DNA of 50,364 nucleotides from a virus. Taxonomy: Duplodnaviria; Heunggongvirae; Uroviricota; Caudoviricetes. The notes beneath the pieces are model-generated. The model did no database searches. It worked only from the letters and a program-made list of their open reading frames with translations, and was not told where the DNA came from. The position numbers and the translations under genes are program-made. The stretch spans positions 1-50,364 of the IMG/VR virus record IMGVR_UViG_2563366831_000011, one strand, 5' to 3'. The number at the start of each line of letters is the position of its first letter. Position 1 is the first letter of the stretch. Positions 1,009 through 48,675 of the stretch are shown piece by piece.

Positions 1009-1083
1009 GTCCTCTTAGTTAAATGGATATAACGAGCCCCTCCTAAGGGCTAATTGCAGGTTCGATTCCTGCAGGGGACACCA
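1009..1083 (+). tRNA. argW: tRNA-Arg (anticodon CCU)
   Basis: 75-nt sequence GTCCTCTTAGTT...GGTTCGATTCCTGCAGGGGACACCA folds as a cloverleaf by eye; anticodon loop CT-CCT-AA; ends in CCA. Confidence 0.9.
1069..1083 (+). repeat. attL core: 15-bp direct repeat CTGCAGGGGACACCA (tRNA 3-prime end)
   Basis: Identical 15-mer recurs at 48661..48675; integrase lies immediately inside. Confidence 0.65.
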
Positions 1084-1178
1084 TTTATCAGTTCGCTCCC
1101 ATCCGTACCAGTCCGTAAAATCCCCTGAATATCAAGCCTTCCGTAGATTTACAGTTCGTCATGGTTCGCGTCAGATCG

Positions 1179-1244
1179 TTGACAGCCGCACTACATGACG
1201 GGTAAAAAGTGGATAAAATAATTTTACCCACCGGATTTTTACCC
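1179..1244 (+). promoter_or_regulatory. int upstream region with perfect TTGACA hexamer and three copies of 8-mer TTTTACCC (two direct, one inverted)
   Basis: TTGACA at 1179..1184; GGGTAAAA 1200..1207 inverted against TTTTACCC 1222..1229; TTTTACCC again at 1237..1244 directly before the int ATG; -10 element ambiguous. Confidence 0.35.
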
Positions 1245-2405
1245 ATGCTCACCGTTAAGCAGATTGAAGCAGCAAAGCCGAAAGAAAAACCATACCGCCT
1301 TCTCGATGGTAATGGACTGTACCTTTATGTCCCTGTATCCGGGAAAAAGGTATGGCAGCTTCGCTACAAGATTGACGGTAAGGAGAAAGTCCTAACCGTA
1401 GGAAAATATCCGCTAATGACTTTGCAGGAGGCAAGGGATAAGGCATGGACTGCGAGGAAAGACATCTCGGTTGGCATCGATCCGGTAAAGGCGAAAAAGG
1501 CTTCGTCTAACAACAATTCATTTAGTGCGATTTACAAGGAATGGTACGAGCACAAGAAGCAAGTCTGGTCAGTAGGCTATGCAAATGAACTTGCAAAAAT
1601 GTTTGATGACGACATTTTACCTATCATCGGCGGCCTTGAAATTCAGGATATTGAGCCGATGCAACTACTGGAAGTAATCCGCAGATTTGAAGATCGCGGT
1701 GCAATGGAGCGAGCCAACAAAGCCCGCAGAAGATGCGGCGAGGTTTTCCGTTACGCTATTGTCACCGGCAGGGCTAAATATAACCCGGCACCTGACCTTG
1801 CTGACGCCATGAAAGGATACCGCAAGAAGAACTTCCCGTTTCTTCCTGCAGACCAGATCCCGGCATTCAACAAAGCACTGGCAACATTTTCAGGAAGTAT
1901 CGTATCGCTCATTGCGACCAAAGTTTTACGCTACACAGCCCTAAGAACGAAAGAGCTTCGTTCCATGCTATGGAAGAACGTCGATTTTGAAAACAGGATT
2001 ATCACCATCGACGCCAGCGTGATGAAGGGACGCAAGATTCATGTGGTCCCGATGTCGGACCAGGTGGTTGAACTTCTCACTACGCTAAGCTCCATCACTA
2101 AACCAGTATCAGAGTTTGTTTTTGCCGGACGCAACGATAAGAAGAAGCCAATCTGCGAGAACGCGGTATTGCTTGTGATCAAACAAATCGGCTATGAGGG
2201 TCTGGAAAGCGGTCACGGATTCAGGCATGAATTCAGCACGATTATGAACGAGCACGAATGGCCTGCTGATGCTATTGAAGTGCAACTTGCACATGCCAAC
2301 GGCGGATCTGTGCGCGGAATTTACAACCATGCTCAGTATCTCGATAAGCGCAGAGAAATGATGCAGTGGTGGGCTGATTACATCGATGGTCGTGCAGGAG
2401 TGTAA
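1245..2405 (+). CDS. intS: Tyrosine recombinase, P4-type phage integrase
   Basis: 386 aa from MLTVKQIEAAKPKEKPYRLLDGNGLYLYV, the typical P4-type integrase N-terminus; adjacent to tRNA att site; the tracked ORF begins 12 codons upstream at 1209. Confidence 0.85.
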   Translation: MLTVKQIEAAKPKEKPYRLLDGNGLYLYVPVSGKKVWQLRYKIDGKEKVLTVGKYPLMTLQEARDKAWTARKDISVGIDPVKAKKASSNNNSFSAIYKEWYEHKKQVWSVGYANELAKMFDDDILPIIGGLEIQDIEPMQLLEVIRRFEDRGAMERANKARRRCGEVFRYAIVTGRAKYNPAPDLADAMKGYRKKNFPFLPADQIPAFNKALATFSGSIVSLIATKVLRYTALRTKELRSMLWKNVDFENRIITIDASVMKGRKIHVVPMSDQVVELLTTLSSITKPVSEFVFAGRNDKKKPICENAVLLVIKQIGYEGLESGHGFRHEFSTIMNEHEWPADAIEVQLAHANGGSVRGIYNHAQYLDKRREMMQWWADYIDGRAGV

Positions 2406-2409
2406 GCCA

Positions 2410-3441
2410 TTACGCGAATTCTTCCACGATCGCCATGCCAGTAGCACCATCACCACCGGTAAATGCCGCACCGGTAAACCCAAGGTCATACGCGCCACCA
2501 CCACCGGATCCGGGAGCTGCGCCAGCAATACCGGCCTGAGAACCCGCCCGGCCACCGCCGCCAAAATACGACGCCCCGCCGTTGCCCGTCAGAAGGCTTG
2601 AGCCTGTCTGTCCATCTGAGCCGGTACCACCGTTGATCCTGATATCTCCGGTCGCCGCCGTACCTCCGGCGCCGCCGGCGGTATTGGACACGCCTGACTT
2701 CACGCCGCCTTTCCCGCCAGGAGCTGAGAACAGGCTGGCAAACGAGGTGGCCCCACCATCTGCACCACTTACTGCGCCAACTCCGCCCTTACCACCCTTG
2801 CCGACAGTAATCGCATAAGAACTGGCAGCAGACAGGTCAACCCATACGATAATGGTCGCGCCCGCGCCGCCGCCAGCACCGGAGAAGGTTTCTGTATTGT
2901 TGTAGGCCTGGCAGCCGCCACCGCCGCCACCGGCACCTGTCAACGTTACTTTTGCATAACGGGCCAGAGGAGATCGCGTATAGGTTCCGTTTGCATAGAA
3001 AGCTTTTGGAGCGCCAAGTGAACGCCCGACAAAACCAGAGGAATCAGATATTCCGAGGTTATAACGGGCTTCATTTACCGCATCCTCACCGGCATCTTTA
3101 ATTTCTGACAGGTTATTGCTGATCTGCAGGAACGATAACAATGATCCGGCTGTCATTAAATTCGCGACAATGTCATTCGTTGACCATACGCGTGCCGTTG
3201 TTCCTTCCTGACCACGAATTACTGTCATCACGTCACCGGATACAGACGTTACGTGCATAATTTCAGAAATTGTTTTCGTGGCCGCGTCGGTTATCGTTAA
3301 TTTGAAATAACTCTGCCCAGATACAGGAGAAGGGAATAAAGCCCCCGCTCCAGTTCCCACGGTAATAACGGTAGCGGACGCACTAATACCCGCAGCGAGA
3401 ACACTCTTTGCGTTATTATTGGCTAATAGCTTCAGCGCCAT
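2410..3441 (-). CDS. Tail fibre protein with glycine-rich C-terminal domain
   Basis: 343 aa; C-terminal half is a Gly-rich repeat domain (GGGGGGCQAY...GGKGGVGAVSGADGG...AYDLGFTG) paralogous to the C-terminus of the 6914..8209 product. Confidence 0.7.
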   Translation of the reverse strand: MALKLLANNNAKSVLAAGISASATVITVGTGAGALFPSPVSGQSYFKLTITDAATKTISEIMHVTSVSGDVMTVIRGQEGTTARVWSTNDIVANLMTAGSLLSFLQISNNLSEIKDAGEDAVNEARYNLGISDSSGFVGRSLGAPKAFYANGTYTRSPLARYAKVTLTGAGGGGGGCQAYNNTETFSGAGGGAGATIIVWVDLSAASSYAITVGKGGKGGVGAVSGADGGATSFASLFSAPGGKGGVKSGVSNTAGGAGGTAATGDIRINGGTGSDGQTGSSLLTGNGGASYFGGGGRAGSQAGIAGAAPGSGGGGAYDLGFTGAAFTGGDGATGMAIVEEFA

Positions 3442-3452
3442 ATATACCCCAG

Positions 3453-3770
3453 TTAAATAATAGAATTATCAGAACGAACATCGCAGATAGTAAATGTCAC
3501 GACGCCGATGACAGTAACATCGTCCAGGGCTTCACCCTCGATCACTTCGCCATCTTCGGTAATAAGTGATCTTCCTCTCAGCTTGGCAAGCTCCGTCCCG
3601 CCGCCATGCTGTATAAGCAGTTGGCTACCCTGCTTTGGCTTCAGGGAGATATCTAGTACAACGTAACCACCAGATCGCTCGAAAACTAGCGTGTTTGGGC
3701 CGACATTGCAGATCGAGTTAACAGACAACCTTTGCTCGACGTAGTCCGTCGCTGGTGAAGGGAATCCCAT
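3453..3770 (-). CDS. Hypothetical protein, second gene of an SOS-box operon
   Basis: 105 aa from the internal start MGFPSP; its ATG overlaps the upstream stop as TAATG (translational coupling); no family recognised. Confidence 0.5.
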   Translation of the reverse strand: MGFPSPATDYVEQRLSVNSICNVGPNTLVFERSGGYVVLDISLKPKQGSQLLIQHGGGTELAKLRGRSLITEDGEVIEGEALDDVTVIGVVTFTICDVRSDNSII

Positions 3771-4009
3771 TAGATCACCCTCCCCATGTTGGCCATCATC
3801 CACAGGCGGTTTTCACTATGCTCTGCCGTTTTATCGATGAAGTAAGACTGCTCGCGAGCGATCCAGGCGTTAGCCTCCACCTCGGAAAAGTGAATGCTAC
3901 GCCGGCGCAGCGCGGTAATGAAGTCGCGGGTGTGAAGGTACTGGAACCCCTTAGAACTGCGCAATACCGACTCGCGGAATGCCTGATTGATGTCTGACTG
4001 TCGATGCAT
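3770..4009 (-). CDS. Hypothetical protein, first gene of an SOS-box operon
   Basis: 79 aa from MHRQSD; GGAGG Shine-Dalgarno 7 nt upstream of the ATG; LexA box immediately upstream. Confidence 0.5.
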   Translation of the reverse strand: MHRQSDINQAFRESVLRSSKGFQYLHTRDFITALRRRSIHFSEVEANAWIAREQSYFIDKTAEHSENRLWMMANMGRVI

Positions 4010-4026
4010 GTCTTCCCTCCGATAAA

Positions 4027-4046
4027 TACTGTTTTTATATACAGTA
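4027..4046 (-). promoter_or_regulatory. LexA (SOS) box TACTGTTTTTATATACAGTA
   Basis: Matches the CTGT-N8-ACAG consensus with flanking TA/TA; sits 18 nt upstream of the 3770..4009 start codon, overlapping the likely -10. Confidence 0.6.
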
Positions 4047-4080
4047 GTTTTATTAGAAGGGAAGCTCAAGTGGTTGACAA

Positions 4081-4758
4081 TCAGTTGCCGTACTGGTCTC
4101 TATAGTATGATTTTATTTGTGAAATTTCTGATGTTGTCTTCGAAGTTGAAAAGATAAGAACTTCCGCATAGTTAACGTTATTCGCGGCAGTCGCCGCCAG
4201 CGTTAGCGGAGCATTCTGGTAGGTAATAGACGATGCCGCGGCTACGGTTATGGTCGCGTCGTTGACATACACCGTCTCGGTGTCAGTTATCGGGTCGTAG
4301 TTCACGATCACAAGATCAATGCCTGTGGATAAGGTCACCCCTCCCTGCTGGGTTGATGACCCTGTTTTGTAATAGTAGAGCTTGTTATCTGTCTGTGCCT
4401 GTAGCCGCAGATGGGGCCCCGCGATTAAAAAGGTAGCTTGTGTGGTGTTATCTCGCTTGAAAGCGAAGGCGTAGCAATAGCCGTTTTCCGCTGTAGCAGG
4501 GTAGACATTCTCAGATGTGACGCCGCCATTTGCGGTTAGCGCACTTTTCATCGTCTTGATTCCGTTCAGCGTCGACGCTGAGATTGCAGAACCTAATGCA
4601 ATATTCATATCGCCAGCGCGGTCTGCAAGAGTTGATACTCGCCAGTCAAAATAGTGCGAAGGGTTCCACCTGGCTGTTTTATCATCGCGCTCGGTATAGG
4701 TGGACTGAATACCGCTATTAACGGCGTTTGGAACCTGTAAAAAAGTACAAATTGCCAT
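4081..4758 (-). CDS. Hypothetical tail-fibre-associated protein
   Basis: 225 aa; AAGGA SD; directly downstream of the tailspike gene on the same strand; Ser/Thr/Asn-rich, beta-rich appearance. Confidence 0.5.
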   Translation of the reverse strand: MAICTFLQVPNAVNSGIQSTYTERDDKTARWNPSHYFDWRVSTLADRAGDMNIALGSAISASTLNGIKTMKSALTANGGVTSENVYPATAENGYCYAFAFKRDNTTQATFLIAGPHLRLQAQTDNKLYYYKTGSSTQQGGVTLSTGIDLVIVNYDPITDTETVYVNDATITVAAASSITYQNAPLTLAATAANNVNYAEVLIFSTSKTTSEISQIKSYYRDQYGN

Positions 4759-4769
4759 GGGTGTATTCC

Positions 4770-6899
4770 TTATTTTCTTAGGGATTGTACGGCGTAGTTC
4801 AGCAGTACTCGTTTTGCCTGATACGCGCCGATAATTCTGGCACCTCTGGCGTTAGGATGTGGGTCTGCGGGATTTGTTGTCGAATATGCATAGCCGTTCT
4901 GAAATGCAAAATTAGAATTCTTTATGAGGTCTCTTACATTGAATCCCAGCATTTTATAGGTTGACTGGATATTATCAAAAACGCTCTCACGCTTAATGTG
5001 ATTGTCGCTATACCAGCGCTCAAGGAAAATAGGCAATTTAGGAATCGCTGATTGAACACGTTCAACTATTGCACTATATCCGTTGAGAAAATCTGTGTCA
5101 GAAAGAGCATAATCATTTTCCCCAAGATTAATAAACGCGACATCCGGCTGAAAATATTGTATCCAGTATTGCTGATAAGACGCTGTTTGATTCAGGTAAT
5201 ACTGAAATGTTGCACCTCCTCTTGCGTAACGAATGACTCTGACGCCGCCAGCAGAGTTGATGCAATTGAAGCTGATCAGGGCAGGATAGCCTGCCTGACC
5301 AGATGCGGGAGGTTCAATTTCCAGGGCGAATCGACCTGAGTTCGGCCCCAGACCCTCCACCCTAACGATTGTTATCGTTTCGCTACCCTCAGGGTTATTC
5401 GGTATTGTGGCTGTTTGCCATTCCCCTGAACCCGCCGGGCCGGTGGAACCATCGTCATTCCTGTCGGTTGCACGGAACCGGAACTGACTAGATGTTCCGG
5501 CGTCTCCGGTACCAGTAAAACCGACCTCGACAACGTCGTGCTGATAAATGGGGTTGCTGCGGGCCGAATCTTTTACGCGAAAAAACAGGTTAGTTCGTCC
5601 AGCCCACGGTACTAGAGCAAAACTCAATGGTGCACATTTTTTCCCATAGGTCTGGTTATCGACCCAGCCAGTATAAACTAACTCCATATTCAGCAGATCT
5701 CTTGACGCTGTGTTATCGTTTGACGGTGCAAAATAACCGATACCCCCATGCCCAAGATTTGCTGCAAAAAGGCTGTACATAGCGTCAATGGCACCCAATC
5801 CCCCTGTGCCTGCAGTGAGAGAGTCACCCTGACAAAAAATAGTTAGATATCCTCCTGTGTATGCCCTTTCCTGCATCGCGATCATGTAATCAAGAAGACC
5901 AGTCTCTGGCAAGCTTGATGCAGCCTGAGAACCTCCTGACCCCGGCAATAGCAATTGGTCGTCGCTTCCGAGAATAGCGAATGGCGAAGATGAGTAGCCC
6001 TTTAAAATAGAACATCCGGCATCTTCTAAAGAATCAGTAGTTAAAAAAGATGCCATCTGGTTATCGCTTCCCATTACAGATAATGGCTTGCCTGGGATAC
6101 CGTAACCATATTTGATATCTGCCCCAGCATCGCGCATTCTGTCGCTATCATTGCCGTATTCAAGGACCTGATAATCAGTGCCTATGATTACGAATTTTTC
6201 ATCTCCGTATCCACTAAGAAATCTTACCCCTGCAAATATCCACGTTGAGGGCATCTGACGTCCGGTAGGCTGCAGCGTTCCGTCAACGTTTACTACCTCA
6301 ATAGCGAGCGTGTCGTCATTGTCAGTGCGATAATAAGCATTTGACCCAACAGGAATATTTCCAGCGTCTGCATCTGCCTGCGCCGCAGCCAGCGTCGGAA
6401 ACTCGCGGATTGTCCCTGTTATGGCCGCTGTACCCGGCTGCTTTGCCTGCAATACGGCCACGCCTGCTTTGTTTTGATACTGCCATGCAGCAGAAAGCGC
6501 ATCTGGACCTTGGGCTACCCAGAATGACTGCCCTTCAGTCGTTGCGGCCAGCCCGGCAATAGTGCCATCAGGATCGCTTGAGGTTTTATAGAATGTGAAC
6601 TTATTCCGTGCATATTCAGAGGCATCATTCTTGTACTCTTCAGCCTGCGCAGCTGAACCTGCGGCTGCCGTTGCCGATTCGGATGAGGCAGCGGCCGAAG
6701 TAGCAGCACTTTGTTCGGCCGTTTCTGCTGAGTTCTTGGCAGCTTCAGCCGCAGTTGCAGCATTAATCGCTTCCTGAGTGGTGGCGCTAATATCCTGATA
6801 GCCCTGCTGGACCTCGATCAGGTACTGCTTTGCCTCTGCGGCACTCACGGACGCCTCTGCCGCGAACTGTGCCGTTTGCTGTGTGTCGGTAGTCGCCAT
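4770..6899 (-). CDS. Tailspike/tail fibre with C-terminal SGNH (GDSL-like) esterase domain
   Basis: 709 aa from MATTDTQ (AGGAAA SD; tracked ORF extends to a GTG at 6920); Ala-rich N-terminus; SGNH blocks visible: FCQGDSLTAG (block I), FINLGENDYA (block III), PADPHPNARG (block V). Confidence 0.7.
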   Translation of the reverse strand: MATTDTQQTAQFAAEASVSAAEAKQYLIEVQQGYQDISATTQEAINAATAAEAAKNSAETAEQSAATSAAASSESATAAAGSAAQAEEYKNDASEYARNKFTFYKTSSDPDGTIAGLAATTEGQSFWVAQGPDALSAAWQYQNKAGVAVLQAKQPGTAAITGTIREFPTLAAAQADADAGNIPVGSNAYYRTDNDDTLAIEVVNVDGTLQPTGRQMPSTWIFAGVRFLSGYGDEKFVIIGTDYQVLEYGNDSDRMRDAGADIKYGYGIPGKPLSVMGSDNQMASFLTTDSLEDAGCSILKGYSSSPFAILGSDDQLLLPGSGGSQAASSLPETGLLDYMIAMQERAYTGGYLTIFCQGDSLTAGTGGLGAIDAMYSLFAANLGHGGIGYFAPSNDNTASRDLLNMELVYTGWVDNQTYGKKCAPLSFALVPWAGRTNLFFRVKDSARSNPIYQHDVVEVGFTGTGDAGTSSQFRFRATDRNDDGSTGPAGSGEWQTATIPNNPEGSETITIVRVEGLGPNSGRFALEIEPPASGQAGYPALISFNCINSAGGVRVIRYARGGATFQYYLNQTASYQQYWIQYFQPDVAFINLGENDYALSDTDFLNGYSAIVERVQSAIPKLPIFLERWYSDNHIKRESVFDNIQSTYKMLGFNVRDLIKNSNFAFQNGYAYSTTNPADPHPNARGARIIGAYQAKRVLLNYAVQSLRK

Positions 6900-6913
6900 A
6901 ATTTTTCCTGTTA

Positions 6914-8209
6914 TTACCACTCGATATGCACAATGCCATCGGCGCCATCGCCGGACGGGTAAGCTATTCCGCTGAAATCAATATCGTAAGCACCACCACC
7001 GCCAGAGCCTGCTGCTTTCCCTTTCACACCGCCGGTTGCGCCGCTGCGTCCTCCGCCACCCCAGAACGAAGCCCCGCCAGAACCGGTAAGCATGTTGGTC
7101 GCAGCCTGGCCGTCATGACCAGTGCCACCCTGAATGTTGATATCGCCACCTGACGCAACACCGCCATCACCACCGGCGCTGTTCACGATGCTGGCCTTGT
7201 TGGATTTTTTTCCACCGCGGCCGAAGATGATCCCACCCAAAGAAGAGTCACCGCCGTCATTGCCCGATACGGCACCTAAAACCGCTGCACCGCCTTTGCC
7301 GACGACAACGGATAAGGTCGTTCCCGGGACAACGTCCAGCCAGCCTAAAGCTGTACCGCCAGCCCCGCCACCGCCACCGCTATAGGACTCACTTGAGGAG
7401 GACGCCTGACAACCGCTTCCGGATCCGCCTGCACCCGTCACGGTGTAACGAATGCGCGTCACCCCTGCAGGCACGACGAACGAATACGTCCCGTTGACTG
7501 CGTAAGCGATGTTTCCGTGAGGCTTCGAAAGGGAGGTTACGTTGGTTCCATCGGAGTGGATTTGCGTAACCGTTCCTGGCTTGCTGACAACTGTTGCGCC
7601 CGCCGCCCTGGTACTTAACTGAACGTAGTAAGCGCTGCCGGTGCAGTTATTTTCGATGGTCCAGTCTTTCACCCATGGAGGGAGATATAGGATCCGGTTA
7701 CCAGTTAGCGCGCCGGTGAGAATTAGCCGTGGGTTAGCAGCCTGCAGATCGGTGGCGTTAACGTTAGCCGTCGATATTGAAATGCTGGCCGCTCCGCATC
7801 CCCATGAAGGCATCCAGCCAGATGCCGTTGCATCGGTTTTTTCCGGTGCGGTGTTATTGGAGTCAATGGTGTTGAGCCACGACACCGAGTAATCGCTGGA
7901 AGGGATCACCGCACCTTTAGGGTAGCCTGAAATTGCTGTTCTGAAATCTGCGTTAAAGGGGTACCCCATCCCGGCATCCGACCATTGCAGGCGAGTGTAA
8001 AGATCATTAAAAATGCCGTTAAAGTCCTGACCCTTTGGCGGCTTACCGCCGGCAGAAAGTGCGATACGGGTCAGCGGCGGGAAACCGGAATCCATAGCCG
8101 CCAGGCCGTCGGCCAGCGTTTCAGAGGTGGAATTGACCGGGATCGTGTTTTTGTCGCCGCTCGCAGAAAATACAACCGTCAGACGTGACGGTATGGCTGA
8201 ATTATTCAA
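6914..8209 (-). CDS. Tail fibre protein with glycine-rich C-terminal domain
   Basis: 431 aa; C-terminal Gly-rich domain (GGGGGAGGTALGW...GGKGG...AYDIDFSG) paralogous to 2410..3441; follows the baseplate I-like gene. Confidence 0.7.
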   Translation of the reverse strand: MNNSAIPSRLTVVFSASGDKNTIPVNSTSETLADGLAAMDSGFPPLTRIALSAGGKPPKGQDFNGIFNDLYTRLQWSDAGMGYPFNADFRTAISGYPKGAVIPSSDYSVSWLNTIDSNNTAPEKTDATASGWMPSWGCGAASISISTANVNATDLQAANPRLILTGALTGNRILYLPPWVKDWTIENNCTGSAYYVQLSTRAAGATVVSKPGTVTQIHSDGTNVTSLSKPHGNIAYAVNGTYSFVVPAGVTRIRYTVTGAGGSGSGCQASSSSESYSGGGGGAGGTALGWLDVVPGTTLSVVVGKGGAAVLGAVSGNDGGDSSLGGIIFGRGGKKSNKASIVNSAGGDGGVASGGDINIQGGTGHDGQAATNMLTGSGGASFWGGGGRSGATGGVKGKAAGSGGGGAYDIDFSGIAYPSGDGADGIVHIEW

Positions 8210-36029: not shown

Positions 36030-36031
36030 TG

Positions 36032-40234: not shown

Positions 40235-40266
40235 GCCCTTTTTCAGGGCGGGGATGGGTAAGAGCG
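40235..40266 (-). promoter_or_regulatory. nutR (boxA CGCTCTTA, boxB GCCCTGAAAAAGGGC)
   Basis: Both boxes read directly on the minus strand between cro and cII. Confidence 0.7.
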
Positions 40267-40273
40267 GGGTTAT

Positions 40274-40483
<210 letters not shown>

Positions 40484-40500
40484 TTAGTACATGCAACTAT

Positions 40501-40564
40501 TATCACCGCCAGAGGTAAAATAGTCAACACGCACGGTGTTAGATATTTATCCCTTGCGGTGATA
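40501..40564. promoter_or_regulatory. Right operator oR1-oR2-oR3 with pR/pRM
   Basis: TATCACCGCCAGAGGTA (40501..40517), CAACACGCACGGTGTTA (40525..40541), TATCCCTTGCGGTGATA (40548..40564) match lambda oR. Confidence 0.85.
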
Positions 40565-40571
40565 GATTTAA

Positions 40572-41288
<717 letters not shown>

Positions 41289-41345
41289 TAGGAAGTAAGT
41301 TTTATGTTGACGGCACAGTCAACTTGGCATAGATTAATTAAACCA

Positions 41346-42463: not shown

Positions 42464-42526
42464 AACCATCTGCGGTGATAAATTATCTCTGGCGGTGTTG
42501 ACACAAATACCACTAGCGGTGATACT
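42464..42526 (+). promoter_or_regulatory. Left operator oL1-3 and promoter pL
   Basis: Three TATCACCGC-type operator sites; -35 TTGACA at 42498..42503 and -10 GATACT at 42521..42526, as in lambda pL. Confidence 0.8.
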
Positions 42527-42565
42527 AAACACATCAGCAGGACGTACTAACCACCATGAAGGTGA

Positions 42566-42596
42566 CGCTCTTAAAAATTAAGCCCTGAAGAAGGGC
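42566..42596 (+). promoter_or_regulatory. nutL (boxA CGCTCTTAAAAATTAA, boxB GCCCTGAAGAAGGGC)
   Basis: Both boxes read directly downstream of pL. Confidence 0.8.
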
Positions 42597-42767
42597 AGCA
42601 TTCAAAGCAGAAGGCTTTGGGGTGTGGTGAAGGGTTCATGGATGGGAATATGTCGCACGTAAAGCGGCGAGGCCTGCGGAACTATTGCCGAATTGAAGTC
42701 GGCCGAAGCAGGTCGAAATGGGTCTCCCACCTACCACACCACCAAAGCTAACTGACAGGAGATGAAC

Positions 42768-42896
42768 ATGAAACATAACGAACACTTTATGGCTTGGTTG
42801 AAGTCAATGCGTGATGAAGCAAAGCGTCCTGAAACAACAATGACGCGAATCGTGGAAATCTTCTCCTGCATCAGCAAGTACGCAACCTGCCAATAA
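42768..42896 (+). CDS. Small hypothetical protein (42 aa) inserted between nutL and N
   Basis: Uses the GGAG SD that serves N in lambda; product MKHNEHFMAWLKSMRDEAKRPETTMTRIVEIFSCISKYATCQ; followed by hairpin GGCCCC-GCTGA-GGGGCC. Confidence 0.4.
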   Translation: MKHNEHFMAWLKSMRDEAKRPETTMTRIVEIFSCISKYATCQ

Positions 42897-42937
42897 CTGT
42901 CGGCCCCGCTGAGGGGCCATTTATCTAAGGATGATAT

Positions 42938-43270
42938 ATGGACTCTCAAACACGCCGCCGCGAACGTCGCGCAGAGAAACAGGCTCAATGGAAAGCAGCA
43001 AATCCCCTGTTGGTTGGGGTAAGCGCAAAACCAGTTAACCGCCCTATTCTCTCGCTGAATCGCAAACCGAAATCACGAGTAGAAAGCGCACTGAATCCGA
43101 TAGACCTTACGGTGCTGGCTGAATACCACGAACAGATTGAAAGCAACCTGCAGCGTATTGAGCGCAAGAATCAGCGCACATGGTACAGCAAGCCACGCAG
43201 TGAAATGGGGGTGACTTGCTCAGGCCGCCAGAAGCAACGCGGAAAATCAATTCCAGCTTATTACGATTGA
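42938..43270 (+). CDS. N: Antitermination protein N
   Basis: 110 aa; MD.QTRRRERRAEKQAQWKAANPLLVGVSAKPVNRPILSLNRKPKSRVESALNPIDLTVLAEYH matches lambda N as recalled; AAGGA SD. Confidence 0.9.
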   Translation: MDSQTRRRERRAEKQAQWKAANPLLVGVSAKPVNRPILSLNRKPKSRVESALNPIDLTVLAEYHEQIESNLQRIERKNQRTWYSKPRSEMGVTCSGRQKQRGKSIPAYYD

Positions 43271-43278: not shown

Positions 43279-43416
43279 ATGCTCAAGAAAGTCAAACGCC
43301 GACTTTACAAGGAAGGTAGATATTCATGCCAGTTGCCAAAATGCGACACAACAAAATGGAGTGTCGATGATTGGTGTAACTGGATAGATAGATACGGAAC
43401 TTGGTGGGATAAATAA
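43279..43416 (+). CDS. Small Cys/Trp-rich hypothetical protein
   Basis: 45 aa MLKKVKRRLYKEGRYSCQLPKCDTTKWSVDDWCNWIDRYGTWWDK with GAGGTGAG SD. Confidence 0.3.
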   Translation: MLKKVKRRLYKEGRYSCQLPKCDTTKWSVDDWCNWIDRYGTWWDK

Positions 43417-43540
43417 CAGGTAACTTAAGCGTATTTACTTTCGCGGCAAACCACATATTTGAGGTGAGATATGGAAGAAGAATTTGAAGAGTTCGAAGAG
43501 CATCCTCAGGATGTGATGGAACAATACCAGGACTATCCGT

Positions 43541-43631
43541 ATGACTATTGATACAAATCAATGGTGTGGACAATACGAACGACGGCAATGATTGCCAGAG
43601 AACTTGGTAAACAGAATAACAAGGCTGCCTG
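43541..43631 (+). pseudogene. ral: ral (restriction alleviation) remnant with internal deletion and frameshift
   Basis: Begins MTIDTNQWCGQ like lambda Ral, stops after 16 codons; the Ral C-terminus IRTTAMIARELGKQNNKAA is encoded in another frame ending at 43631. Confidence 0.5.
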
Positions 43632-43768
43632 ATGGTGGCCTTTATTTTTGGCATAAACAACAGAATAAACACTGCACTGTGTATTCATTCCAACGAGTGA
43701 ATACACGGAGCAATGTCGCTCGTAACTAAACAGGAGCCGACTTGTTCTGATTATTGGAAATCTTCTTT

Positions 43769-43795
43769 GCCCTCCAGTGTGAGGGCAATTTTTTT
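43769..43795 (+). terminator. Intrinsic terminator-like hairpin in the pL operon
   Basis: GCCCTC-CAGTGT-GAGGGC followed by AATTTTTTT. Confidence 0.45.
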
Positions 43796-43807
43796 GACGG
43801 AGGATAT

Positions 43808-44776
43808 ATGAGTGAAGTAACAGATTTAGTTGTTATTGAAAAAGCAAATGCAATGACTGTATTTCAGTCTGCCGACCAGATTGAAGAAATCCTTCAAAAG
43901 GTTGAACGTGAAGTTATGTCCTTTGTGCCTGATATCACAACGGCAAAGGGCAGAAAGGAGATCGCTTCTCTGGCGTATAAAGTTGCGCAGACGAAAACAT
44001 ATCTCGATGGTCTTGGCAAAGACCTTGTTGCTGAACTGAAGGAAATTCCAAAGCTAATTGATGCTAACCGCAAGACAGTGCGCGATCGCCTTGATGAACT
44101 GAAAGCCAAGGCGCGCCAGCCTCTTACTGATTATGAGGAAGAACAGGCGCGGATTAAAGCCGAAGAAGAAGCTAAGGCAGCAGCTGAAGCTCTCGCAAAG
44201 CAAATTGAGTCTGACCATGAAATAGCTATTTTGATGGATCGCGAATTTGACCGCCAAAGAGAAGAGGCAAGACTCAAAGCGGAGCAGGAAAAGCGAGAGC
44301 ATGAAGAACGCTTAAAAAGAGAAGCTGAAGAGAAAGCCAGAGCAGAAGCCGAAGCAAAGGCAAAAGCCGAAATTGAAGCAGCAGCAAGGCGAGAAGCAGA
44401 AGCTAAGGCCGCAGCGGAACGTGCAGAGCGTGAACGCATTGAAGCCGAGCAGCGAGCACAGCGCGAAGCAAAAGAGGCAGCAGAACGAGCTGAAAGAGAA
44501 AAGCAGGCAGCAATTGAAGCAGAACGCAGAAAAGCACAGGAGGAGGCTGAACGAATCCGTCGCGATGCTGAAGCAAAAGAGCAAGCCAGAATAGCAGAAG
44601 AAAAAAGAATCAAGGAAGAAGAAGAGCGTAGAGCAAAGGATAAAGCTCACCGGAAAGAAGTAAATAACAAAATACTTGCTGACCTTATCAAGGTTGGTGC
44701 ATCAGAAGATGTTGCTAAAAATATCATAACAGCCATCGTAAAAGGCGAAGTATTCGCAACAAAAATAACCTACTAA
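43808..44776 (+). CDS. Coiled-coil protein rich in Glu/Lys/Ala/Arg repeats, unknown function
   Basis: 322 aa from MSEVTD (GGAGG SD); long central run of AEAKAKAE/REAEEKAR-type repeats. Confidence 0.55.
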   Translation: MSEVTDLVVIEKANAMTVFQSADQIEEILQKVEREVMSFVPDITTAKGRKEIASLAYKVAQTKTYLDGLGKDLVAELKEIPKLIDANRKTVRDRLDELKAKARQPLTDYEEEQARIKAEEEAKAAAEALAKQIESDHEIAILMDREFDRQREEARLKAEQEKREHEERLKREAEEKARAEAEAKAKAEIEAAARREAEAKAAAERAERERIEAEQRAQREAKEAAERAEREKQAAIEAERRKAQEEAERIRRDAEAKEQARIAEEKRIKEEEERRAKDKAHRKEVNNKILADLIKVGASEDVAKNIITAIVKGEVFATKITY

Positions 44777-44800
44777 TAAAACCAACATAAGGAACCACCC

Positions 44801-44932
44801 ATGATTTACGCAATCGCGGGAGGCGCTCGCATGGGTGCCTTCCAACTAAATGAATCTTTACTTGAACGAATCACCCGTAAATTACGTGACGGATGGAAAA
44901 GAGTTGAGGTCTTATTATGCGCAATGAAATAG
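44801..44932 (+). CDS. Small hypothetical protein (43 aa)
   Basis: AAGGA SD; part of a chain of overlapping short ORFs. Confidence 0.3.
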   Translation: MIYAIAGGARMGAFQLNESLLERITRKLRDGWKRVEVLLCAMK

Positions 44933-45069
44933 CCATAAATCATCAGATGCTTCGTGCTGCACAAAACAAAGCAGTAATAGCCAGATTTATTGGTGATTCC
45001 AAAATGTGGTTTGAAGCAAATAAAGCGATGAAATCAGCTATCAACCTTCCGTGGTATCGCAGGAAATGA
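44917..45069 (+). CDS. Small hypothetical protein (50 aa)
   Basis: Overlapping short ORF in the early-left operon. Confidence 0.3.
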   Translation: MRNEIAINHQMLRAAQNKAVIARFIGDSKMWFEANKAMKSAINLPWYRRK

Positions 45070-45224
45070 GTTTTACAGATAACTGGTCAGACGAAGAATT
45101 CATTCGTCAGATGAAAGATTTAATCGGTAACGAAGGAGATATTCATGTCACTTGCAACCACAGTGAAGGAGAGCAAGTTACAGAGACGCATGTACACGCA
45201 GAAAGCTCTCTGGTATCGCCATAA
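45066..45224 (+). CDS. Small acidic hypothetical protein (52 aa)
   Basis: ATG overlaps the upstream stop (ATGA); acidic composition. Confidence 0.3.
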   Translation: MSFTDNWSDEEFIRQMKDLIGNEGDIHVTCNHSEGEQVTETHVHAESSLVSP

Positions 45225-45325
45225 TGGTGACCGCGAAGGAATGCGGGTATGCCTTAATTTGTCCCGAGTCGAAGTATTAAATCAGCGTTATTTCCTTGGG
45301 CCGTGTCCATTCTGAGATCAAACAT

Positions 45326-45931
45326 ATGAGCAAAGAATTTTATGCAAGGCTGGCAGCCATTCAGGAGAATCTGAACGCGCCAAAGAATCAGTACAACTCA
45401 TTCGGTAAATATAAATACAGAAGCTGCGAAGACATTCTTGAAGGCGTTAAGCCGTTACTGAATGGTCTGTTTTTATCAATCAGCGATGAAGTTGTGTTGA
45501 TTGGTGATCGGTATTACGTGAAAGCCACGGCAACTATTACCGATGGCGAAAACAGTCATACGGCAACCGCTCTTGCACGAGAGGAAGAAAGCAAGAAAGG
45601 AATGGATTCTGCACAAGTTACGGGAGCTACAAGCTCTTATGCACGCAAGTATTGCCTCAATGGTTTGTTCGGCATTGATGATGCGAAAGATGCAGATACC
45701 GACGAGCATAAACATCAGCAGAACGCAGCAGCAAAGCAATCAAAACCATCACCTACACCTGAACAGGTTCTAAAAGCATTCACTGACGCAGCAATGCAGA
45801 AAAACACCGTAGAAGAGCTTAAACAGGCGTTCGCCAAAGCGTGGAAGATGCTCGAAGGCACACCGGAGCAGCACAAAGCGCAGGACGTTTACAACATCAG
45901 ACGAGACGAATTAGAAGGAGCGGCTGCTTAA
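45326..45931 (+). CDS. Single-strand annealing protein (Erf-like)
   Basis: 201 aa from MSKEFYARLAAIQ; motif SYARKYCLNGLFGIDD recalled as Erf-family-like; immediately upstream of an SSB gene. Confidence 0.5.
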   Translation: MSKEFYARLAAIQENLNAPKNQYNSFGKYKYRSCEDILEGVKPLLNGLFLSISDEVVLIGDRYYVKATATITDGENSHTATALAREEESKKGMDSAQVTGATSSYARKYCLNGLFGIDDAKDADTDEHKHQQNAAAKQSKPSPTPEQVLKAFTDAAMQKNTVEELKQAFAKAWKMLEGTPEQHKAQDVYNIRRDELEGAAA

Positions 45932-46314
45932 TGGCACATTCGATTACTGTAAGACTAAACAAGCCCGCAAGAGAGTTTCAGACCGGGGAAAATATCGGAT
46001 TCAACATCCGTGCTGGCGTTCAGTATTACGATCGCCAGACAAAAAAGAAAGAATGGACAAACTACAGCGCCGTTGTATTTGCCAAGCCGGGAGCGCAAGC
46101 GGATTACTATCGTAGCGTTCTGGTTGAAGGAGGCATTGTAGAAATTACCGGAGAAAACATCAGGGTTGATGTTTATCAGGGGCAAAATGGTCAATCAATC
46201 ACTCTTGAATTACTGAATGCAAAGATTGGATTTGCAACTTCAGGAAACAGCCAACAGCAGCAAAGTAGCAATCATCAAAATCATCCTGAATACGACGATT
46301 CAATTCCCTTCTAG
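45931..46314 (+). CDS. ssb: Single-stranded DNA-binding protein (phage SSB)
   Basis: 127 aa from MAHSITV; Gln-rich linker and acidic C-terminal tip DDSIPF, the hallmark SSB tail. Confidence 0.6.
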   Translation: MAHSITVRLNKPAREFQTGENIGFNIRAGVQYYDRQTKKKEWTNYSAVVFAKPGAQADYYRSVLVEGGIVEITGENIRVDVYQGQNGQSITLELLNAKIGFATSGNSQQQQSSNHQNHPEYDDSIPF

Positions 46315-46337
46315 ATTAGCAAAATAAGGATTCCATT

Positions 46338-46631
46338 ATGCCAGCGCCTCTGTATGGTGCGGATGACCCGCGCCGCTGTTCCGGCAATTCCGTATCGGAG
46401 GTGCTGGATAAATTCAGAAAAAACTACGATCGGATAATGTCGCTACCGCAGGAAACGAAAGAGGAAAAGGAATTTCGTCACTGTATATGGCTTGCAGAGA
46501 AAGAAGAACGCGAGCGAATTTACCAGACATCAATCCGACCATTCCGCAAAGCCACATATACCCACTTCCCTGAAATTGACCCGCGCCTGCGTAATTACCG
46601 CTCACGCTATGGCGCTATCAGTAATGACTGA
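46338..46631 (+). CDS. Hypothetical protein
   Basis: 97 aa with AAGGA SD. Confidence 0.4.
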   Translation: MPAPLYGADDPRRCSGNSVSEVLDKFRKNYDRIMSLPQETKEEKEFRHCIWLAEKEERERIYQTSIRPFRKATYTHFPEIDPRLRNYRSRYGAISND

Positions 46632-46932
46632 GGAATTAACAATGAAAACAATGAAGCTGAACATCGACCTCGGAAAATACGTTATTACCGGAACCAAACA
46701 CGACCTGATTCTTAGCGAAAGAGGAATTATCAAAGAAGGTGAGAATGCAGGGAAAGAAACACTAAGCCGTATCGGTTATTACAGCAAGTTTGAGCATCTG
46801 GTTAAAGAGTTATGTAACCGTGAAATCCTGTTATCTCAGGCGCAGACGCTACAGGATATTCAGCAGCATATCGAAACTTTAGGTATGTCACTTAGCATGG
46901 CTATTGACCAGTTCGTGGAGAGTAAATCATGA
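46624..46932 (+). CDS. Hypothetical protein
   Basis: 102 aa from MTEELTM, overlapping the upstream stop by 8 nt. Confidence 0.4.
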
Positions 46933-47096
46933 GAGGACTTGCATACAATCCCGGCATTCTTCCGGCAGAAATGATTATTCGCCAACGCGTAAAGCCAATG
47001 CCATCGAGAGAGGAATTGCTTAAGAGAAAGAGTTTCGGTTCTGTTAATGACAACAAATATCTGAATGCGATGTTGCGCAAAGGAGGCAACCGGTGA
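46929..47096 (+). CDS. Small hypothetical protein (55 aa)
   Basis: ATGA start/stop overlap with the upstream gene. Confidence 0.3.
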
Positions 47097-47176
47097 CTGG
47101 ACATGCAGCGATCCTCGACATGTGCTGTGGCAGCCGCATGTTCTGGTTAGATAAGAATGACGAACGGGCGAGATAA
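47093..47176 (+). pseudogene. Possible DNA methyltransferase remnant
   Basis: Short GTG-initiated frame [27 protein letters not shown]; DMCCGS resembles a methyltransferase motif I; truncated after 27 codons. Confidence 0.2.
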
Positions 47177-47226
47177 GCGATCGGTTAAGTGCTATAGTAA
47201 TGCGCTTTTGTATTTATGGAGTGAAT

Positions 47227-47925
47227 ATGAAAAATATCCTACTGGCATCATTGTTAGTGGCATCGCCGGGTGCATTTGCAGCCAGCTTTGACTGCCAAAA
47301 GGCTTCGACAGCAATCGAACATAAAATCTGCGATAACGAACGTCTGTCAAAATTAGACGAACAGCTTAGCTCTGCCTATTCTAGTGCCCTCAAAGAAAAC
47401 CCAGAGAACGCAGACACCCTAAAAATGGTTCAACGTCAGTGGGTAAATATGCGTGGAAAACTCACTGATAATAAGGCTCTGGAGCTGGCTTATCTTATCC
47501 AAATTAATGGCCTCAAAGGTTTGGGGAGTTCAGTCAGCGTAACAGCGGCCAATGAGATACCCACGTCGACGCAGAAACATTCTGAAGAGCAGGAAGAAAC
47601 AAGTAAGGCAGAAGTTAAGTCGGTCAAGAACGGCAATAAGCTAACCTTAGAGTCATTCCGAGCTAAATATGTAGAAGTAGATGGTGAGTATTACAGCACG
47701 ACATCCATTCCTAGAGGCAGTTCGTTCTTGTTCACTTGCGCCAGTCGTATTGCTGATGACCAAGTGAATGTTTGGAAGAAACATGCAGCCAAAGAGGGCA
47801 AAATCGACCTATTCTTTGAGGTTGAGAATCACTTACACACTGCTATGTTGAACGCCAATTTCCAGAAGTTGAATTCAGACCCTGCCAAAAGAGGTATTTG
47901 TAATCTGATTAACGCAGTGCCGTAA
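47227..47925 (+). CDS. Secreted LprI-like (DUF1311-type) protein
   Basis: 232 aa from MKNILLASLLVASPGAFA (signal peptide, GGAG SD); then FDCQKASTAIEHKICDNERLSKLDEQLSSAY resembling the recalled DUF1311 pattern. Confidence 0.55.
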   Translation: MKNILLASLLVASPGAFAASFDCQKASTAIEHKICDNERLSKLDEQLSSAYSSALKENPENADTLKMVQRQWVNMRGKLTDNKALELAYLIQINGLKGLGSSVSVTAANEIPTSTQKHSEEQEETSKAEVKSVKNGNKLTLESFRAKYVEVDGEYYSTTSIPRGSSFLFTCASRIADDQVNVWKKHAAKEGKIDLFFEVENHLHTAMLNANFQKLNSDPAKRGICNLINAVP

Positions 47926-47934
47926 GTAAATTTA

Positions 47935-47963
47935 GGGCCACAGTTGTGGCCTTAAATATTTTT
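47935..47963 (+). terminator. Intrinsic terminator
   Basis: GGGCCACA-GT-TGTGGCC followed by T-rich tract. Confidence 0.5.
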
Positions 47964-48161
47964 TCAGCCTTTTCTTATTTGTAATAAGCAGTACTTAGTA
48001 GTGCTTATAAAACAGAATAAAAAACATATGACTTTGGCGATTACCCAGTAAAGATATTCGAAATAAATGTAAATATCGGCAATGAATAACAATCCTCGCA
48101 TTCGCGGGGATTTCTTTTATCTGAACTCGCTACGGCGGGTTTTGTTTTATGGAGATGATAA

Positions 48162-48329
48162 ATGCACTTCCGAGTCACAGGTGAATGGAATGGAGAGCCA
48201 TTCGACAGGGTTATCGAAGCAGAGGACATCAACGACTGCTATAACCACTGGATGATATGGGCGCAGATAGCGCATGCAGACGTAACCAATATTCGAATTG
48301 AAGAACTGAAAGAACACCAAGCCGCCTGA
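48162..48329 (+). CDS. Small hypothetical protein (55 aa)
   Basis: GGAGATGATAA region upstream of the ATG; followed by an intrinsic terminator. Confidence 0.35.
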   Translation: MHFRVTGEWNGEPFDRVIEAEDINDCYNHWMIWAQIAHADVTNIRIEELKEHQAA

Positions 48330-48341
48330 TGGCGGTTTTTT
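48321..48341 (+). terminator. Intrinsic terminator
   Basis: GCCGCC-TGAT-GGCGG followed by TTTTTT. Confidence 0.55.
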
Positions 48342-48352
48342 ATTGCCTGATT

Positions 48353-48369
48353 TGCAGGTTCGATTCCCT
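48353..48369 (+). other. Fragment matching the argW T-arm (TTGCAGGTTCGATTCC)
   Basis: 16-nt identity to tRNA positions 1054..1069, upstream of the excisionase-like gene; non-overlapping with the attR core. Confidence 0.5.
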
Positions 48370-48386
48370 ATTCGGAGATAGCACTC

Positions 48387-48587
48387 ATGCAACACGAACT
48401 ACAGCCTGATTCACTGGTTGATTTGAAATTCATCATGGCCGATACTGGCTTCGGTAAAACCTTCATCTACGACCGGATTAAGTCCGGCGACCTGCCAAAA
48501 GCCAAAGTTATCCACGGACGAGCAAGATGGTTATATCGTGACCATTGTGAATTCAAAAATAAGCTCTTAAGCCGCGCTAATGGGTAA
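48387..48587 (+). CDS. torI: AlpA/TorI-family excisionase (recombination directionality factor)
   Basis: 66 aa; FIYDRIKSGDLPKAKVIHGRARWL fits the AlpA winged-helix pattern; recalled as the KplE1 TorI sequence; lies between tRNA-derived repeats at the prophage end. Confidence 0.6.
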   Translation: MQHELQPDSLVDLKFIMADTGFGKTFIYDRIKSGDLPKAKVIHGRARWLYRDHCEFKNKLLSRANG

Positions 48588-48660
48588 AATAGCGGGTAAA
48601 ATATTTCTCACATCTAAAAAATATCATTCCAATCAACCCCCTGCCGCGCCAAGTAGATGT

Positions 48661-48675
48661 CTGCAGGGGACACCA
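48661..48675 (+). repeat. attR core: 15-bp direct repeat CTGCAGGGGACACCA
   Basis: Exact copy of the tRNA 3-prime end at 1069..1083. Confidence 0.65.

Follow-up and report, generated by a model that had tools for sequence, protein, structure and literature searches.

Lambdoid phages with contractile tails are well known, as the lambdoid Myoviridae have become an established class with the SfV-like phages (PMC3603311; PMC3636060). In Escherichia coli K-12, the argW gene harbours the cryptic element CPS-53/KplE1, which has no repressor, and the IntS/TorI recombination module of this element has been found to be functional and to be conserved in the active phages HK620, Sf6 and CUS-3 (PMC2951348). 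Relatives with another type of myovirus virion are known from Klebsiella and Escherichia: the Klebsiella phage RCIP0114 (OR532908), which encodes an integrase, came from sewage (PMC11434222), Bleriot et al. have classed a related prophage of Klebsiella, ST15-VIM1phi2, as Myoviridae by homology (PMC7371120), and the Escherichia phage PDP110_P1 (OZ035751) forms plaques and is specific for E. coli with a K55 Klebsiella-type capsule (bioRxiv 10.1101/2023.11.22.567924). The DNA considered here (the window) is the whole 50,364-nucleotide (nt) stretch of the IMG/VR virus record IMGVR_UViG_2563366831_000011, in which a prophage of 47,607 base pairs (bp) is inserted in argW. It is very likely that this prophage is one complete 47.6-kilobase (kb) genome of a temperate lambdoid myovirus, built of four known modules. 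These modules are the IntS/TorI/att recombination system of the HK620/Sf6/CUS-3/KplE1 type; a lambda-type CI/Cro/OR/OL switch with a NYN-domain gene in the place of rexAB; an Sf6/HK620-type set of N, cII/cIII, O-like and DnaB-like replication genes, nin region, phage-21-type Q and two tRNAs together with lambda-type S/R/Rz/Rz1; and a Klebsiella-lineage virion, distantly like that of the E217/PB1 phages, together with an immI-like antirepressor cassette and esterase-bearing fibres.

The boundaries of the prophage are given by 15-bp direct repeats, CTGCAGGGGACACCA (repeat family D16), which a repeat search placed around the 47,607-bp insert at exactly the positions (1069 and 48675) at which an earlier note on this DNA had put the ends of a full-length mosaic prophage of about 47.6 kb at argW, and with its single att pair the insert bears this description out. 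The left repeat is the attL core (1069-1083), the same as the cores of K-12 and Sf6, by which the 3' end of the tRNA-Arg(CCU) gene argW (1009-1083, plus strand; found by ARAGORN, and by Rfam as tRNA with 63 bits) is regenerated. The right repeat (48661-48675) closes the attR arm (48588-48675), which aligns with K-12 attR and with the xis side of Sf6 attP. The core of KplE1 has been published with 16 nt, CTGCAGGGGACACCAT (PMC2951348), of which CTGCAGGGGACACCA represents the first 15, and attR differs at the 16th base. The attL arm (1084-1244, plus strand) overlaps the intS promoter and has nearly the same sequence as K-12 attL and the int side of Sf6 attP; it is in this region that the arm-type sites of IntS and the sites of TorI have been placed (PMC2951348). 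Almost every base of both arms can be aligned to K-12 and to one or the other side of Sf6 attP. The intS gene (1245-2405, plus strand) encodes a tyrosine integrase of 386 amino acids (aa) that has 98% aa identity with K-12 IntS, 97% with Sf6 Int and 85% with RCIP0114 Int, with a catalytic RHR...Y region that is invariant in the alignment, and the product of torI (48387-48587, plus strand), a recombination directionality factor (excisionase), agrees at 66 of 66 aa with K-12 TorI and Sf6 gp18. As intS adjoins attL, reads away from the tRNA and has its promoter in the attL arm, and torI lies at the opposite end beside attR, the transcription of the two genes is uncoupled. Site and core, gene arrangement and IntS/TorI orthologues are thus those of the KplE1/HK620/Sf6 type, with 15 of the 16 core nt duplicated, and the integrase, excisionase and att core indeed match those of the K-12 argW element, as the earlier note had described. 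Directly before torI and about 300 bp inside attR, 16 nt of the argW T-arm are repeated as TTGCAGGTTCGATTCC (48352-48367). This copy was considered as a second att site or a trace of tandem integration, which is ruled out because K-12 and Sf6 have it before torI as well, in the corresponding position, and an earlier att region that was longer and derived from the tRNA may have left it behind. The left flank of the prophage is yfdC (99% aa identity to K-12), and the right flank is the oligosaccharide/sucrose major facilitator superfamily transporter gene of the csc regulon (49117-50364, minus strand), as in strain MB15, whereas K-12 has dsdC/dsdX at this place; csc beside argW is a known alternative gene content.

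Apart from the recombination module, the prophage has nothing in common with the K-12 element. A BLASTN comparison of the window with MG1655 2465000-2480000 gave two blocks only, window 1-2377 with yfdC, argW, the attL arm and intS (97.2% nt identity) and window 48337-48675 with torI and attR (96.2%). The prophage shares 1,648 of its 47,607 nt with the K-12 locus, all of them in the recombination module, and the interior genes of KplE1 (the gtr genes yfdG-I, and yfdK-T) have no match in the window outside that module. As Shigella phage SfV matches the interior of KplE1 (yfdGH, yfdL-N, yfdP-T) with 82-97% nt identity, the K-12 element is best described, on sequence, as the remnant of an SfV-like lambdoid myovirus with an Sf6-type IntS/TorI module, and not as a decayed copy of the window phage. 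The prophage had been thought to be a relative of the cryptic element, and this relationship does not extend beyond the recombination module. Site, 15-nt core stretch, a 98% identical IntS and an identical TorI could even make the prophage the complete ancestral form of CPS-53/KplE1, with KplE1 as its deletion derivative, but the yfd genes just named have no counterpart in the window, the virion proteins of the window have no BLASTP match in SfV, and the recombination module is common to unrelated phages (PMC2951348), so that such a descent is extremely improbable.

The immunity switch (40274-41288) is that of lambda. It consists of cro (40274-40474, minus strand), the operators OR1-OR2-OR3 (40501-40564) and cI (40575-41288, plus strand), and the block from cro to cI (40153-41292) is 97.8% nt identical to lambda 37223-38362. 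Cro is identical to its lambda counterpart at 66 of 66 aa and CI at 233 of 237, and none of the CI substitutions (T3A, K70N, R129K, D138G) lies in the helix-turn-helix, the Ala-Gly cleavage site (QAG) and the catalytic Ser/Lys positions being unchanged as well. On the OL side of the switch follow, on the plus strand (42464-43270), OL3-OL2-OL1/pL (42464-42524), nutL (42581-42597), an Sf6/MB15-type leader with a small open reading frame (ORF), and N (42938-43270). OR1-3, OL2, OL3 and nutL are exact copies of the lambda sites, and OL1 and nutR have one mismatch each. CI/Cro specificity and lambda operators at OR and OL are the sequence characters of imm-lambda, and the prophage is thus inferred to be homoimmune with lambda. 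The interval between nutL and N (42600-42937) is about 180 nt longer than in lambda and contains an ORF of about 45 codons, followed by a hairpin; a novel insertion is ruled out here, as the leader is found also in the MB15 argW prophage and the nutL-N spacing of Sf6 is similar.

Lambda matches in total 5,207 of the 47,607 nt of the prophage (11%). Outside the switch, near-lambda proteins are the holin S (106 of 107 aa), the endolysin R (154 of 158), NinG (196 of 204) and NinI (210 of 223). The near-lambda character that had been ascribed to cI, cro, N, S and R thus holds for CI, Cro, S and R, and N is closer to Sf6 (98%) than to lambda (98 of 107 aa, 92%). A comparison of the whole prophage with the K-12 locus and with lambda had been proposed as a check, and it gave the K-12 match at the recombination module and the lambda match of 5,207 nt. 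Neither rexAB, lambda O/P and lambda Q nor exo/bet/gam, int/xis and any of the lambda head and tail genes have a counterpart in the window. The lambda homology ends at 41292, 4 nt past the cI stop codon, and restarts at 42281, the end of rexB.

The greater part of the early, replication, late-control and lysis functions is of the Sf6/HK620 type, and Sf6 shares 11,941 nt with the prophage. The early and late genes have the same lengths and 94-100% aa identity (cII 90%) in comparison with the live phage Sf6 or the MB15 argW prophage. In the pL (delayed-early) operon (43279-48330, plus strand; gene lengths as in Sf6 or the MB15 prophage, with 96-100% aa identity, Pfam ERF and LprI, PHROG SSB), small ORFs, a gene for a TolA-like coiled-coil protein (43754-44776), cIII (44801-44932; 100% aa identity) and kil (44917-45069; 98%) are followed by the recombination genes for Erf (45296-45931; 211 aa, 98% to the MB15 prophage), SSB (45841-46314) and the anti-RecBCD protein Abc2 (46338-46631; 97%), and a segment like lambda orf55 (48086-48349, plus strand) is recognizable by its nt match to lambda. 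In the other direction lie the cII-type activator and nutR (39877-40250, nutR at 40234-40250, minus strand; cII 90% identical to Sf6), after which comes the replication module (37378-39694, minus strand) with an O-like initiator (38804-39694, 296 aa) and a DnaB-like helicase (37378-38829, 483 aa). Both have 99% aa identity and equal lengths to Sf6 gp43 and gp44 and no similarity to lambda O or P, and the origin iterons TGGACAACCGT (39214-39320, repeat family D2) lie within the O-like gene, likewise as annotated for the rep_origin of Sf6.

Late control is encoded in the Q and nin region (33714-37323, minus strand), with Q (33714-34232), the NinI phosphatase (34223-34894; 95% identical to lambda), NinG (34891-35502; 97%), NinF, and NinX-like, NinE and NinB-like proteins. 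Q is of the phage-21/Sf6 type (Pfam Phage_antitermQ) and with 172 aa as long as Sf6 gp59, to which it is 99% identical; ninG is whole here and interrupted by IS911 in Sf6. Just downstream of the late promoter, a phage tRNA-Thr(UGU) and tRNA-Asn(GUU) are encoded (33495-33650, minus strand; ARAGORN, Rfam), the same pair at the same place after Q as in Sf6, and besides these two and the argW tRNA an Rfam scan of the window gave nothing above threshold. The lysis cassette (32035-33252, minus strand) comprises holin S (32929-33252), endolysin R (32469-32945), Rz (32035-32472) and the embedded Rz1 (32088-32279), and Rz/Rz1 have 94-98% identity with their Sf6 and MB15 counterparts. Divergent cI/cro, N and Q antitermination, the nin region, and S-R-Rz/Rz1 upstream of the virion genes together represent the lambdoid layout.

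The virion half (2410-30688) was assigned by PHROG, Pfam and PGAP-annotated orthologues, and it is here that the prophage departs from lambda and Sf6. The earlier note had recognized sheath, tube and baseplate genes of the myovirus type, and also this recognition is upheld, by PHROG, Pfam and structure matches to the Pseudomonas phages E217 and Pa193. The contractile tail sheath (19140-20621, minus strand; PHROG 205 'tail sheath', Pfam DUF3383) matches the solved E217 sheath gp31 (PDB 8env/8fuv/8fvg) with E=2e-22. The tail tube (18697-19140, minus strand) is recognized by Pfam E217_Gp32 and by its gene position, and a sequence comparison with the PDB gave no match for it; tube and sheath are both 100% identical in aa to relatives. 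The baseplate wedge genes (8211-10387, minus strand) code for a DUF2612 protein (8211-8798), a baseplate J/gp47 family protein (8791-10077) and a gp25-like wedge protein (10031-10387), which belong to PHROG 587, 6 and 120, have PDB matches to E217 gp44, Pa193 gp45 and XM1 gp16, and are 99-100% identical in aa to relatives. The inner baseplate and tape measure genes (12707-17204, minus strand; PHROG 196, 349, 1830 and 2013, and PGAP names of AMR2684 orthologues) encode an unnamed protein (12707-13354), the hub (13284-14153), a plug (14150-14455), a further baseplate protein (14457-15296) and the tape measure with a lytic transglycosylase (SLT) domain (15300-17204), all with ORF lengths equal or near to those of relatives, and the tail assembly chaperone (17403-17879, minus strand) belongs to PHROG 1932. 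With sheath, tube, tape measure, hub and both gp25-like and J/gp6-like wedge proteins, the genes characteristic of a myovirus are present, and a contractile tail can be expected for the virion on the ground of gene homology. No micrograph of the window phage or of PDP110_P1 was found.

The neck, head and packaging genes (20625-29989, minus strand) were assigned by PHROGs and by PDB matches to the capsid and portal of E217 and Pa193. They comprise neck/terminator and head-completion genes (20625-22858), the major capsid protein of the DUF2184 type (22860-23897), a cement protein (23897-24379), a DUF2213 protease/scaffold (24381-25550), a head morphogenesis protein (25554-26252), the DUF1073 portal (26305-27825), TerL (27826-29502) and TerS/DUF2280 (29504-29989). 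Their counterparts in PDP110_P1, in the AMR2684 prophage and in the CP141750 circle described below do not differ in length and are 89-100% identical in aa. A putative phage metallopeptidase (30020-30688, minus strand; Pfam PhageMetallopep) lies in the zone where virion and lysis genes meet. At the other end of the virion half, the tail-fibre/receptor-binding cassette (2410-8209, minus strand; Pfam Gly_rich_2 and Lipase_GDSL, PHROG tail-fibre families) consists of a glycine-rich fibre (2410-3441), small ORFs (3453-4069), a function-unassigned protein (4081-4758), a fibre with a C-terminal SGNH/GDSL esterase domain (4770-6920) and a second glycine-rich fibre (6914-8209).

Relatives were sought by megablast with each half of the window against 5,426 complete E. 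coli genomes and 50,697 phage records, and none of these records covers at least 80% of either half, so that, without an identical prophage, relatives were compared module by module. Related prophages are present in five of the 5,426 genomes (AMR2684, 20KM2222, 2023CK-01482, 2023CK-01687 and strain 126). From terS to the baseplate, the virion genes have the same length and mostly 95-100% aa identity in comparison with PDP110_P1, the AMR2684 prophage and the CP141750 circle, with the exception of terS (89%) and of some inner-baseplate proteins and the tape measure (67-87%). From terS (DUF2280) to baseplate J the module is collinear with that of the PDP110_P1/RCIP0114-type phages, in blocks of 85-99% and mostly 94-98% nt identity. 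One of the relatives is present in two forms, as NZ_CP141750.1 of 2023CK-01482, deposited as 'plasmid unnamed4', is a 47,948-bp circle that is 100% identical to the prophage in the chromosome of the same strain (NZ_CP141749.1 3850500-3900400) and permuted relative to it at the integrase end; judged by this permutation, the 'plasmid' is an excised phage genome. PDP110P1 has been deposited as an unclassified 'Lambdavirus', a label that appears to be wrong, as the phage has virion genes of the myovirus type, with sheath, tube and baseplate, and little in common with lambda beyond the genes for regulation and lysis.

The same recombination module is found with quite different virions at argW. The prophage of MB15 has a P22-like virion, and SW07096 and 98218 combine IntS/TorI with a third virion module, in 98218 also with the lambda cI/cro/NYN cassette. 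Window 1-6413, including tail-fibre genes, is 96.5% identical to the SW07096 prophage, and apart from the tail fibres the virion module of SW07096/98218 has no BLASTP match to the virion proteins of the window. IntS/TorI prophages with this third module occur at argW in many E. coli genomes, where the module is mostly annotated as hypothetical and some PGAP labels in it ('anti-CBASS Acb1 family', 'NUDIX hydrolase', 'ubiquitin-activating E1 FCCH domain') look doubtful.

How the mosaic came about can be read from its junctions. IntS is of the E. coli type up to its last 8 aa, which are of the RCIP0114 type (it ends in YIDGRAGV, K-12 IntS in WLDEKVE and RCIP0114 Int in YIDGRAVQ), and E. coli relatives that have another integrase retain an 87-bp remnant of the IntS 3' end at the same place, in NZ_CP141750.1 at 19612-19698, which is why these ends appear to mark the 3' end of intS (2272-2405) as a recurrent recombination junction. 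At the other junction, 30024-31006 is 99.3% nt identical to PDP110_P1, and Sf6-like sequence restarts at 31199 and 32042. The simplest reading would be homologous recombination between an argW-resident, Sf6-like lambdoid phage of E. coli and a Klebsiella-type myovirus that already had a homologous IntS/TorI module, with one crossover inside the last ~25 nt of intS and a second one between the lysis cassette and terS. The change between the halves is sharp, both in ancestry and in the content of guanine and cytosine (about 54-58% over most of the virion half versus 43-50% in the early half), and in the chromosomes of AMR2684 and 2023CK-01482 the related prophage is adjoined by a second integrase-bearing element. 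One might therefore ask if the window contains two elements (tandem or nested prophages, or a prophage and a satellite) or an assembly chimera. Such a composite is very improbable, as there is but one att pair, each essential function is present once, with no second integrase, repressor, terminase or lysis set, the order lysis cassette-metallopeptidase-terS recurs in PDP110_P1 and in the circular CP141750, the junction of integrase and tail fibres is contiguous in SW07096, and the argW-like fragment before torI is a conserved part of the module and not a second att site. The second elements adjoining the prophages of 2023CK-01482 and AMR2684 contain yfdR/S/T, which suggests that tandem prophages are present there.

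One complete phage genome at argW is thus the preferred reading, and it can be asked whether this genome is still alive. Inactivating lesions had been named beforehand as what would speak against an inducible phage, and in genes with a comparator in functional relatives there is no frameshift, premature stop, insertion sequence (IS) element or truncation; ORFs with a counterpart in live or excising relatives (Sf6, PDP110_P1, the circular relative) have the same or nearly the same length. Because no lesion was found, the prophage is probably inducible. In the lysogen, CI at OR and OL would keep the prophage silent, and the cI transcript would drive also the NYN gene. SOS-activated RecA would stimulate autocleavage of CI, N antitermination from pL would then reach torI, and TorI and IntS would excise the genome at the 15-bp core together with host factors. 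The O-like and DnaB-like proteins would replicate it from the iteron origin, and Q would switch on a single long late operon that runs from the lysis genes via the terminase to the tail fibres. In this way an essentially wild-type lambda CI/Cro switch may govern an E217-like virion with contractile tail, in an inducible phage that is homoimmune with lambda and yet a myovirus.

Several points weigh against this view. The exact mosaic is present in no complete E. coli genome or phage record searched, and no virion with it has been observed, no single relative compared gives a contiguous match for about 1.2 kb where virion and lysis genes meet (31007-32041, with a Rha gene), an assembly join within the window is possible in principle, and intact ORFs do not prove that promoters, packaging signals and interactions between modules work in this combination. 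The prophage could thus be a recently immobilized, defective one, with intact ORFs and with induction, packaging or assembly blocked by the mix of modules or by subtle regulatory or missense changes, to which the four substitutions in CI and the mismatch in OL1 might contribute. But apart from the integrity of the genes with comparators, the order of modules across the lysis/terS junction is the same in the viable PDP110_P1 and in the excising CP141750 circle, and att arms, IntS and TorI agree with those of functional systems, which makes a defective prophage rather unlikely.

Among the accessory genes, the one between cI and OL deserves most attention. It encodes a NYN-domain protein of 285 aa (41416-42273, plus strand; LabA-like, predicted RNase; Pfam NYN 6.8e-9) and exactly fills the rexA-rexB slot, from the cI stop codon to the immunity terminator/OL. 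The lambda cI/cro/NYN cassette is common, being found with 99.6% identity in 73 of the 5,426 E. coli genomes, and the same cassette is present in about 48 Stx2a-converting phages and in the phages 2B8, ev099, E212 and EC.P3, where the gene is annotated just as hypothetical or NYN; in strain 98218 it is split or frameshifted. A literature search found no characterized NYN gene in the rex slot, and PADLOC, applied to ten accessory proteins, gave just two weak matches, HEC-09 and NYN, both for this protein. As it is presumably co-transcribed with cI in lysogens, the protein may be an uncharacterized prophage exclusion or abortive-infection nuclease, though this is less likely than not. As a candidate for a new lysogen-expressed defence it is the most promising loose end of this prophage.

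A module like immI of P22 is inserted in the baseplate operon (10443-12038), with ant (10443-11489, minus strand), arc (11437-11610, minus strand) and a divergent gene for an Arc/Mnt-like repressor (11694-12038, plus strand). It has Pfam matches to P22_AR_N, P22_AR_C and Arc, its nt identity to phage JLK-2012 and Stx phages in their ant region is about 97%, it is absent from PDP110_P1 and from the CP141750 circle, and AMR2684 has a diverged copy. With this cassette there would therefore be a second, antirepressor-based layer of control on top of lambda CI. In the same variable slot, between this cassette and the baseplate genes, lies also a gene for a predicted lipoprotein of 217 aa (12052-12705, minus strand; lipobox LSSC), which matches only PHROG 26209 'unknown' and has no Pfam or PADLOC match; it may be a superinfection-exclusion gene or another accessory gene. 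A Rha/ORF11CD3 regulator (17959-18516, minus strand; Pfam Phage_pRha and ORF11CD3) is encoded between tube and tail chaperone, where relatives have a KilA-N gene instead, and a second, different Rha-family regulator (31312-31872, minus strand; Pfam Phage_pRha) between lysis cassette and terS; the two places look like insertion hot spots of accessory genes. The pL operon encodes, close to torI, a secreted protein of 241 aa (47200-47925, plus strand) that has a clear signal peptide, a lysozyme-inhibitor-like domain (LprI/DUF1311) and no counterpart in any relative compared.

As to its class, the element thus is, on the evidence of its genes, a lambdoid myovirus and a new mosaic member of the known PDP110_P1/RCIP0114-type group. 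The pairing of lambdoid regulation with a contractile tail had been called unusual, a view that finds no support, as lambdoid Myoviridae are established and the same virion occurs with lambdoid early genes in PDP110_P1, in RCIP0114 and in Klebsiella prophages. What seems particular to the window is the combination of an E. coli IntS/TorI module, lambda cI/cro/NYN, Sf6-type replication and a Klebsiella-type myovirus virion. The prophage is a clean worked example of modular phage evolution that leaves the current understanding unchallenged. In E. coli, at least three virion types that are unrelated to each other now go with the argW IntS/TorI module (P22-like podovirus, SW07096/98218 type and Klebsiella-type myovirus), a recombination junction can be mapped inside the last int codons, and virion modules move between Klebsiella and Escherichia phages, which bears on work on host range and capsule tropism such as the targeting of the K55 capsule by PDP110_P1. 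A lambda-immune myovirus would moreover be a handy genetic system.

In comparison with the known systems, the prophage shares with lambda CI, Cro, OR, OL, nutL, nutR, S, R, NinG and NinI at 92-100%, but with 5.2 kb in common and none of the lambda head and tail genes it does not belong to the genus Lambdavirus, as a genus is defined by the International Committee on Taxonomy of Viruses (ICTV) by about 70% genome-wide nt similarity. With the P22-like Sf6, HK620, CUS-3 and the MB15 argW prophage (genus Lederbergvirus) it shares the argW attachment, the IntS/TorI module (96-97% nt), N, cII, cIII, kil, O-like/DnaB-like replication, Q, tRNA-Asn/Thr and S/R/Rz/Rz1, in total 11.9 kb, whereas Sf6 has a P22-like podovirus virion, 434-type immunity, the conversion gene oac and IS911 in ninG where the window has a myovirus virion and lambda immunity. 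The SfV-like phages (SfV, SfI, SfII, SfIV) represent the same concept, with lambdoid regulation and layout, a contractile tail, integration at a tRNA site and mosaic halves, but SfV has an HK97-like head and a Mu-like tail, and the 29 virion proteins of the window have no BLASTP match at E<1e-3 among the SfV ORFs, so that the virion is not SfV-like. Among solved structures, the PB1-like E217 and Pa193 provide the best homologues of the sheath, the major capsid protein, the portal and the wedge, with E=1e-10 to 1e-35, and are distant in sequence; these phages are known as virulent, with genomes of about 66 kb, and are not known to have lambdoid regulation. RCIP0114 and the Klebsiella prophages ST15-VIM1phi2.1 and ST899-OXA48phi17.1 share the virion module at about 86-96% nt, RCIP0114 by itself at about 91-96%, and RCIP0114 also has, next to the tail fibres and arranged as here, an IntS-type integrase, a TorI-type directionality factor and an argW-type att; it differs in the early region, immunity and lysis (with a signal-arrest-release endolysin), has Klebsiella as its host, and its int and torI are 75.7% and 78.7% nt identical to those of the window, where window and K-12 have 96-97%. 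PDP110_P1 covers 27.2 of the 47.6 kb, with the virion module, lambda-type S/R, phage-21-type Q and nin in common; it differs, like the E. coli prophage relatives, in integrase/xis and site, in immunity (CI 65-70% identical), in the replication genes and in the distal tail fibre, and the 3' IntS remnant that the E. coli prophages keep is not seen in it. Close relatives have thus already been isolated as live phages, and next to them the prophage is tidy but ordinary.

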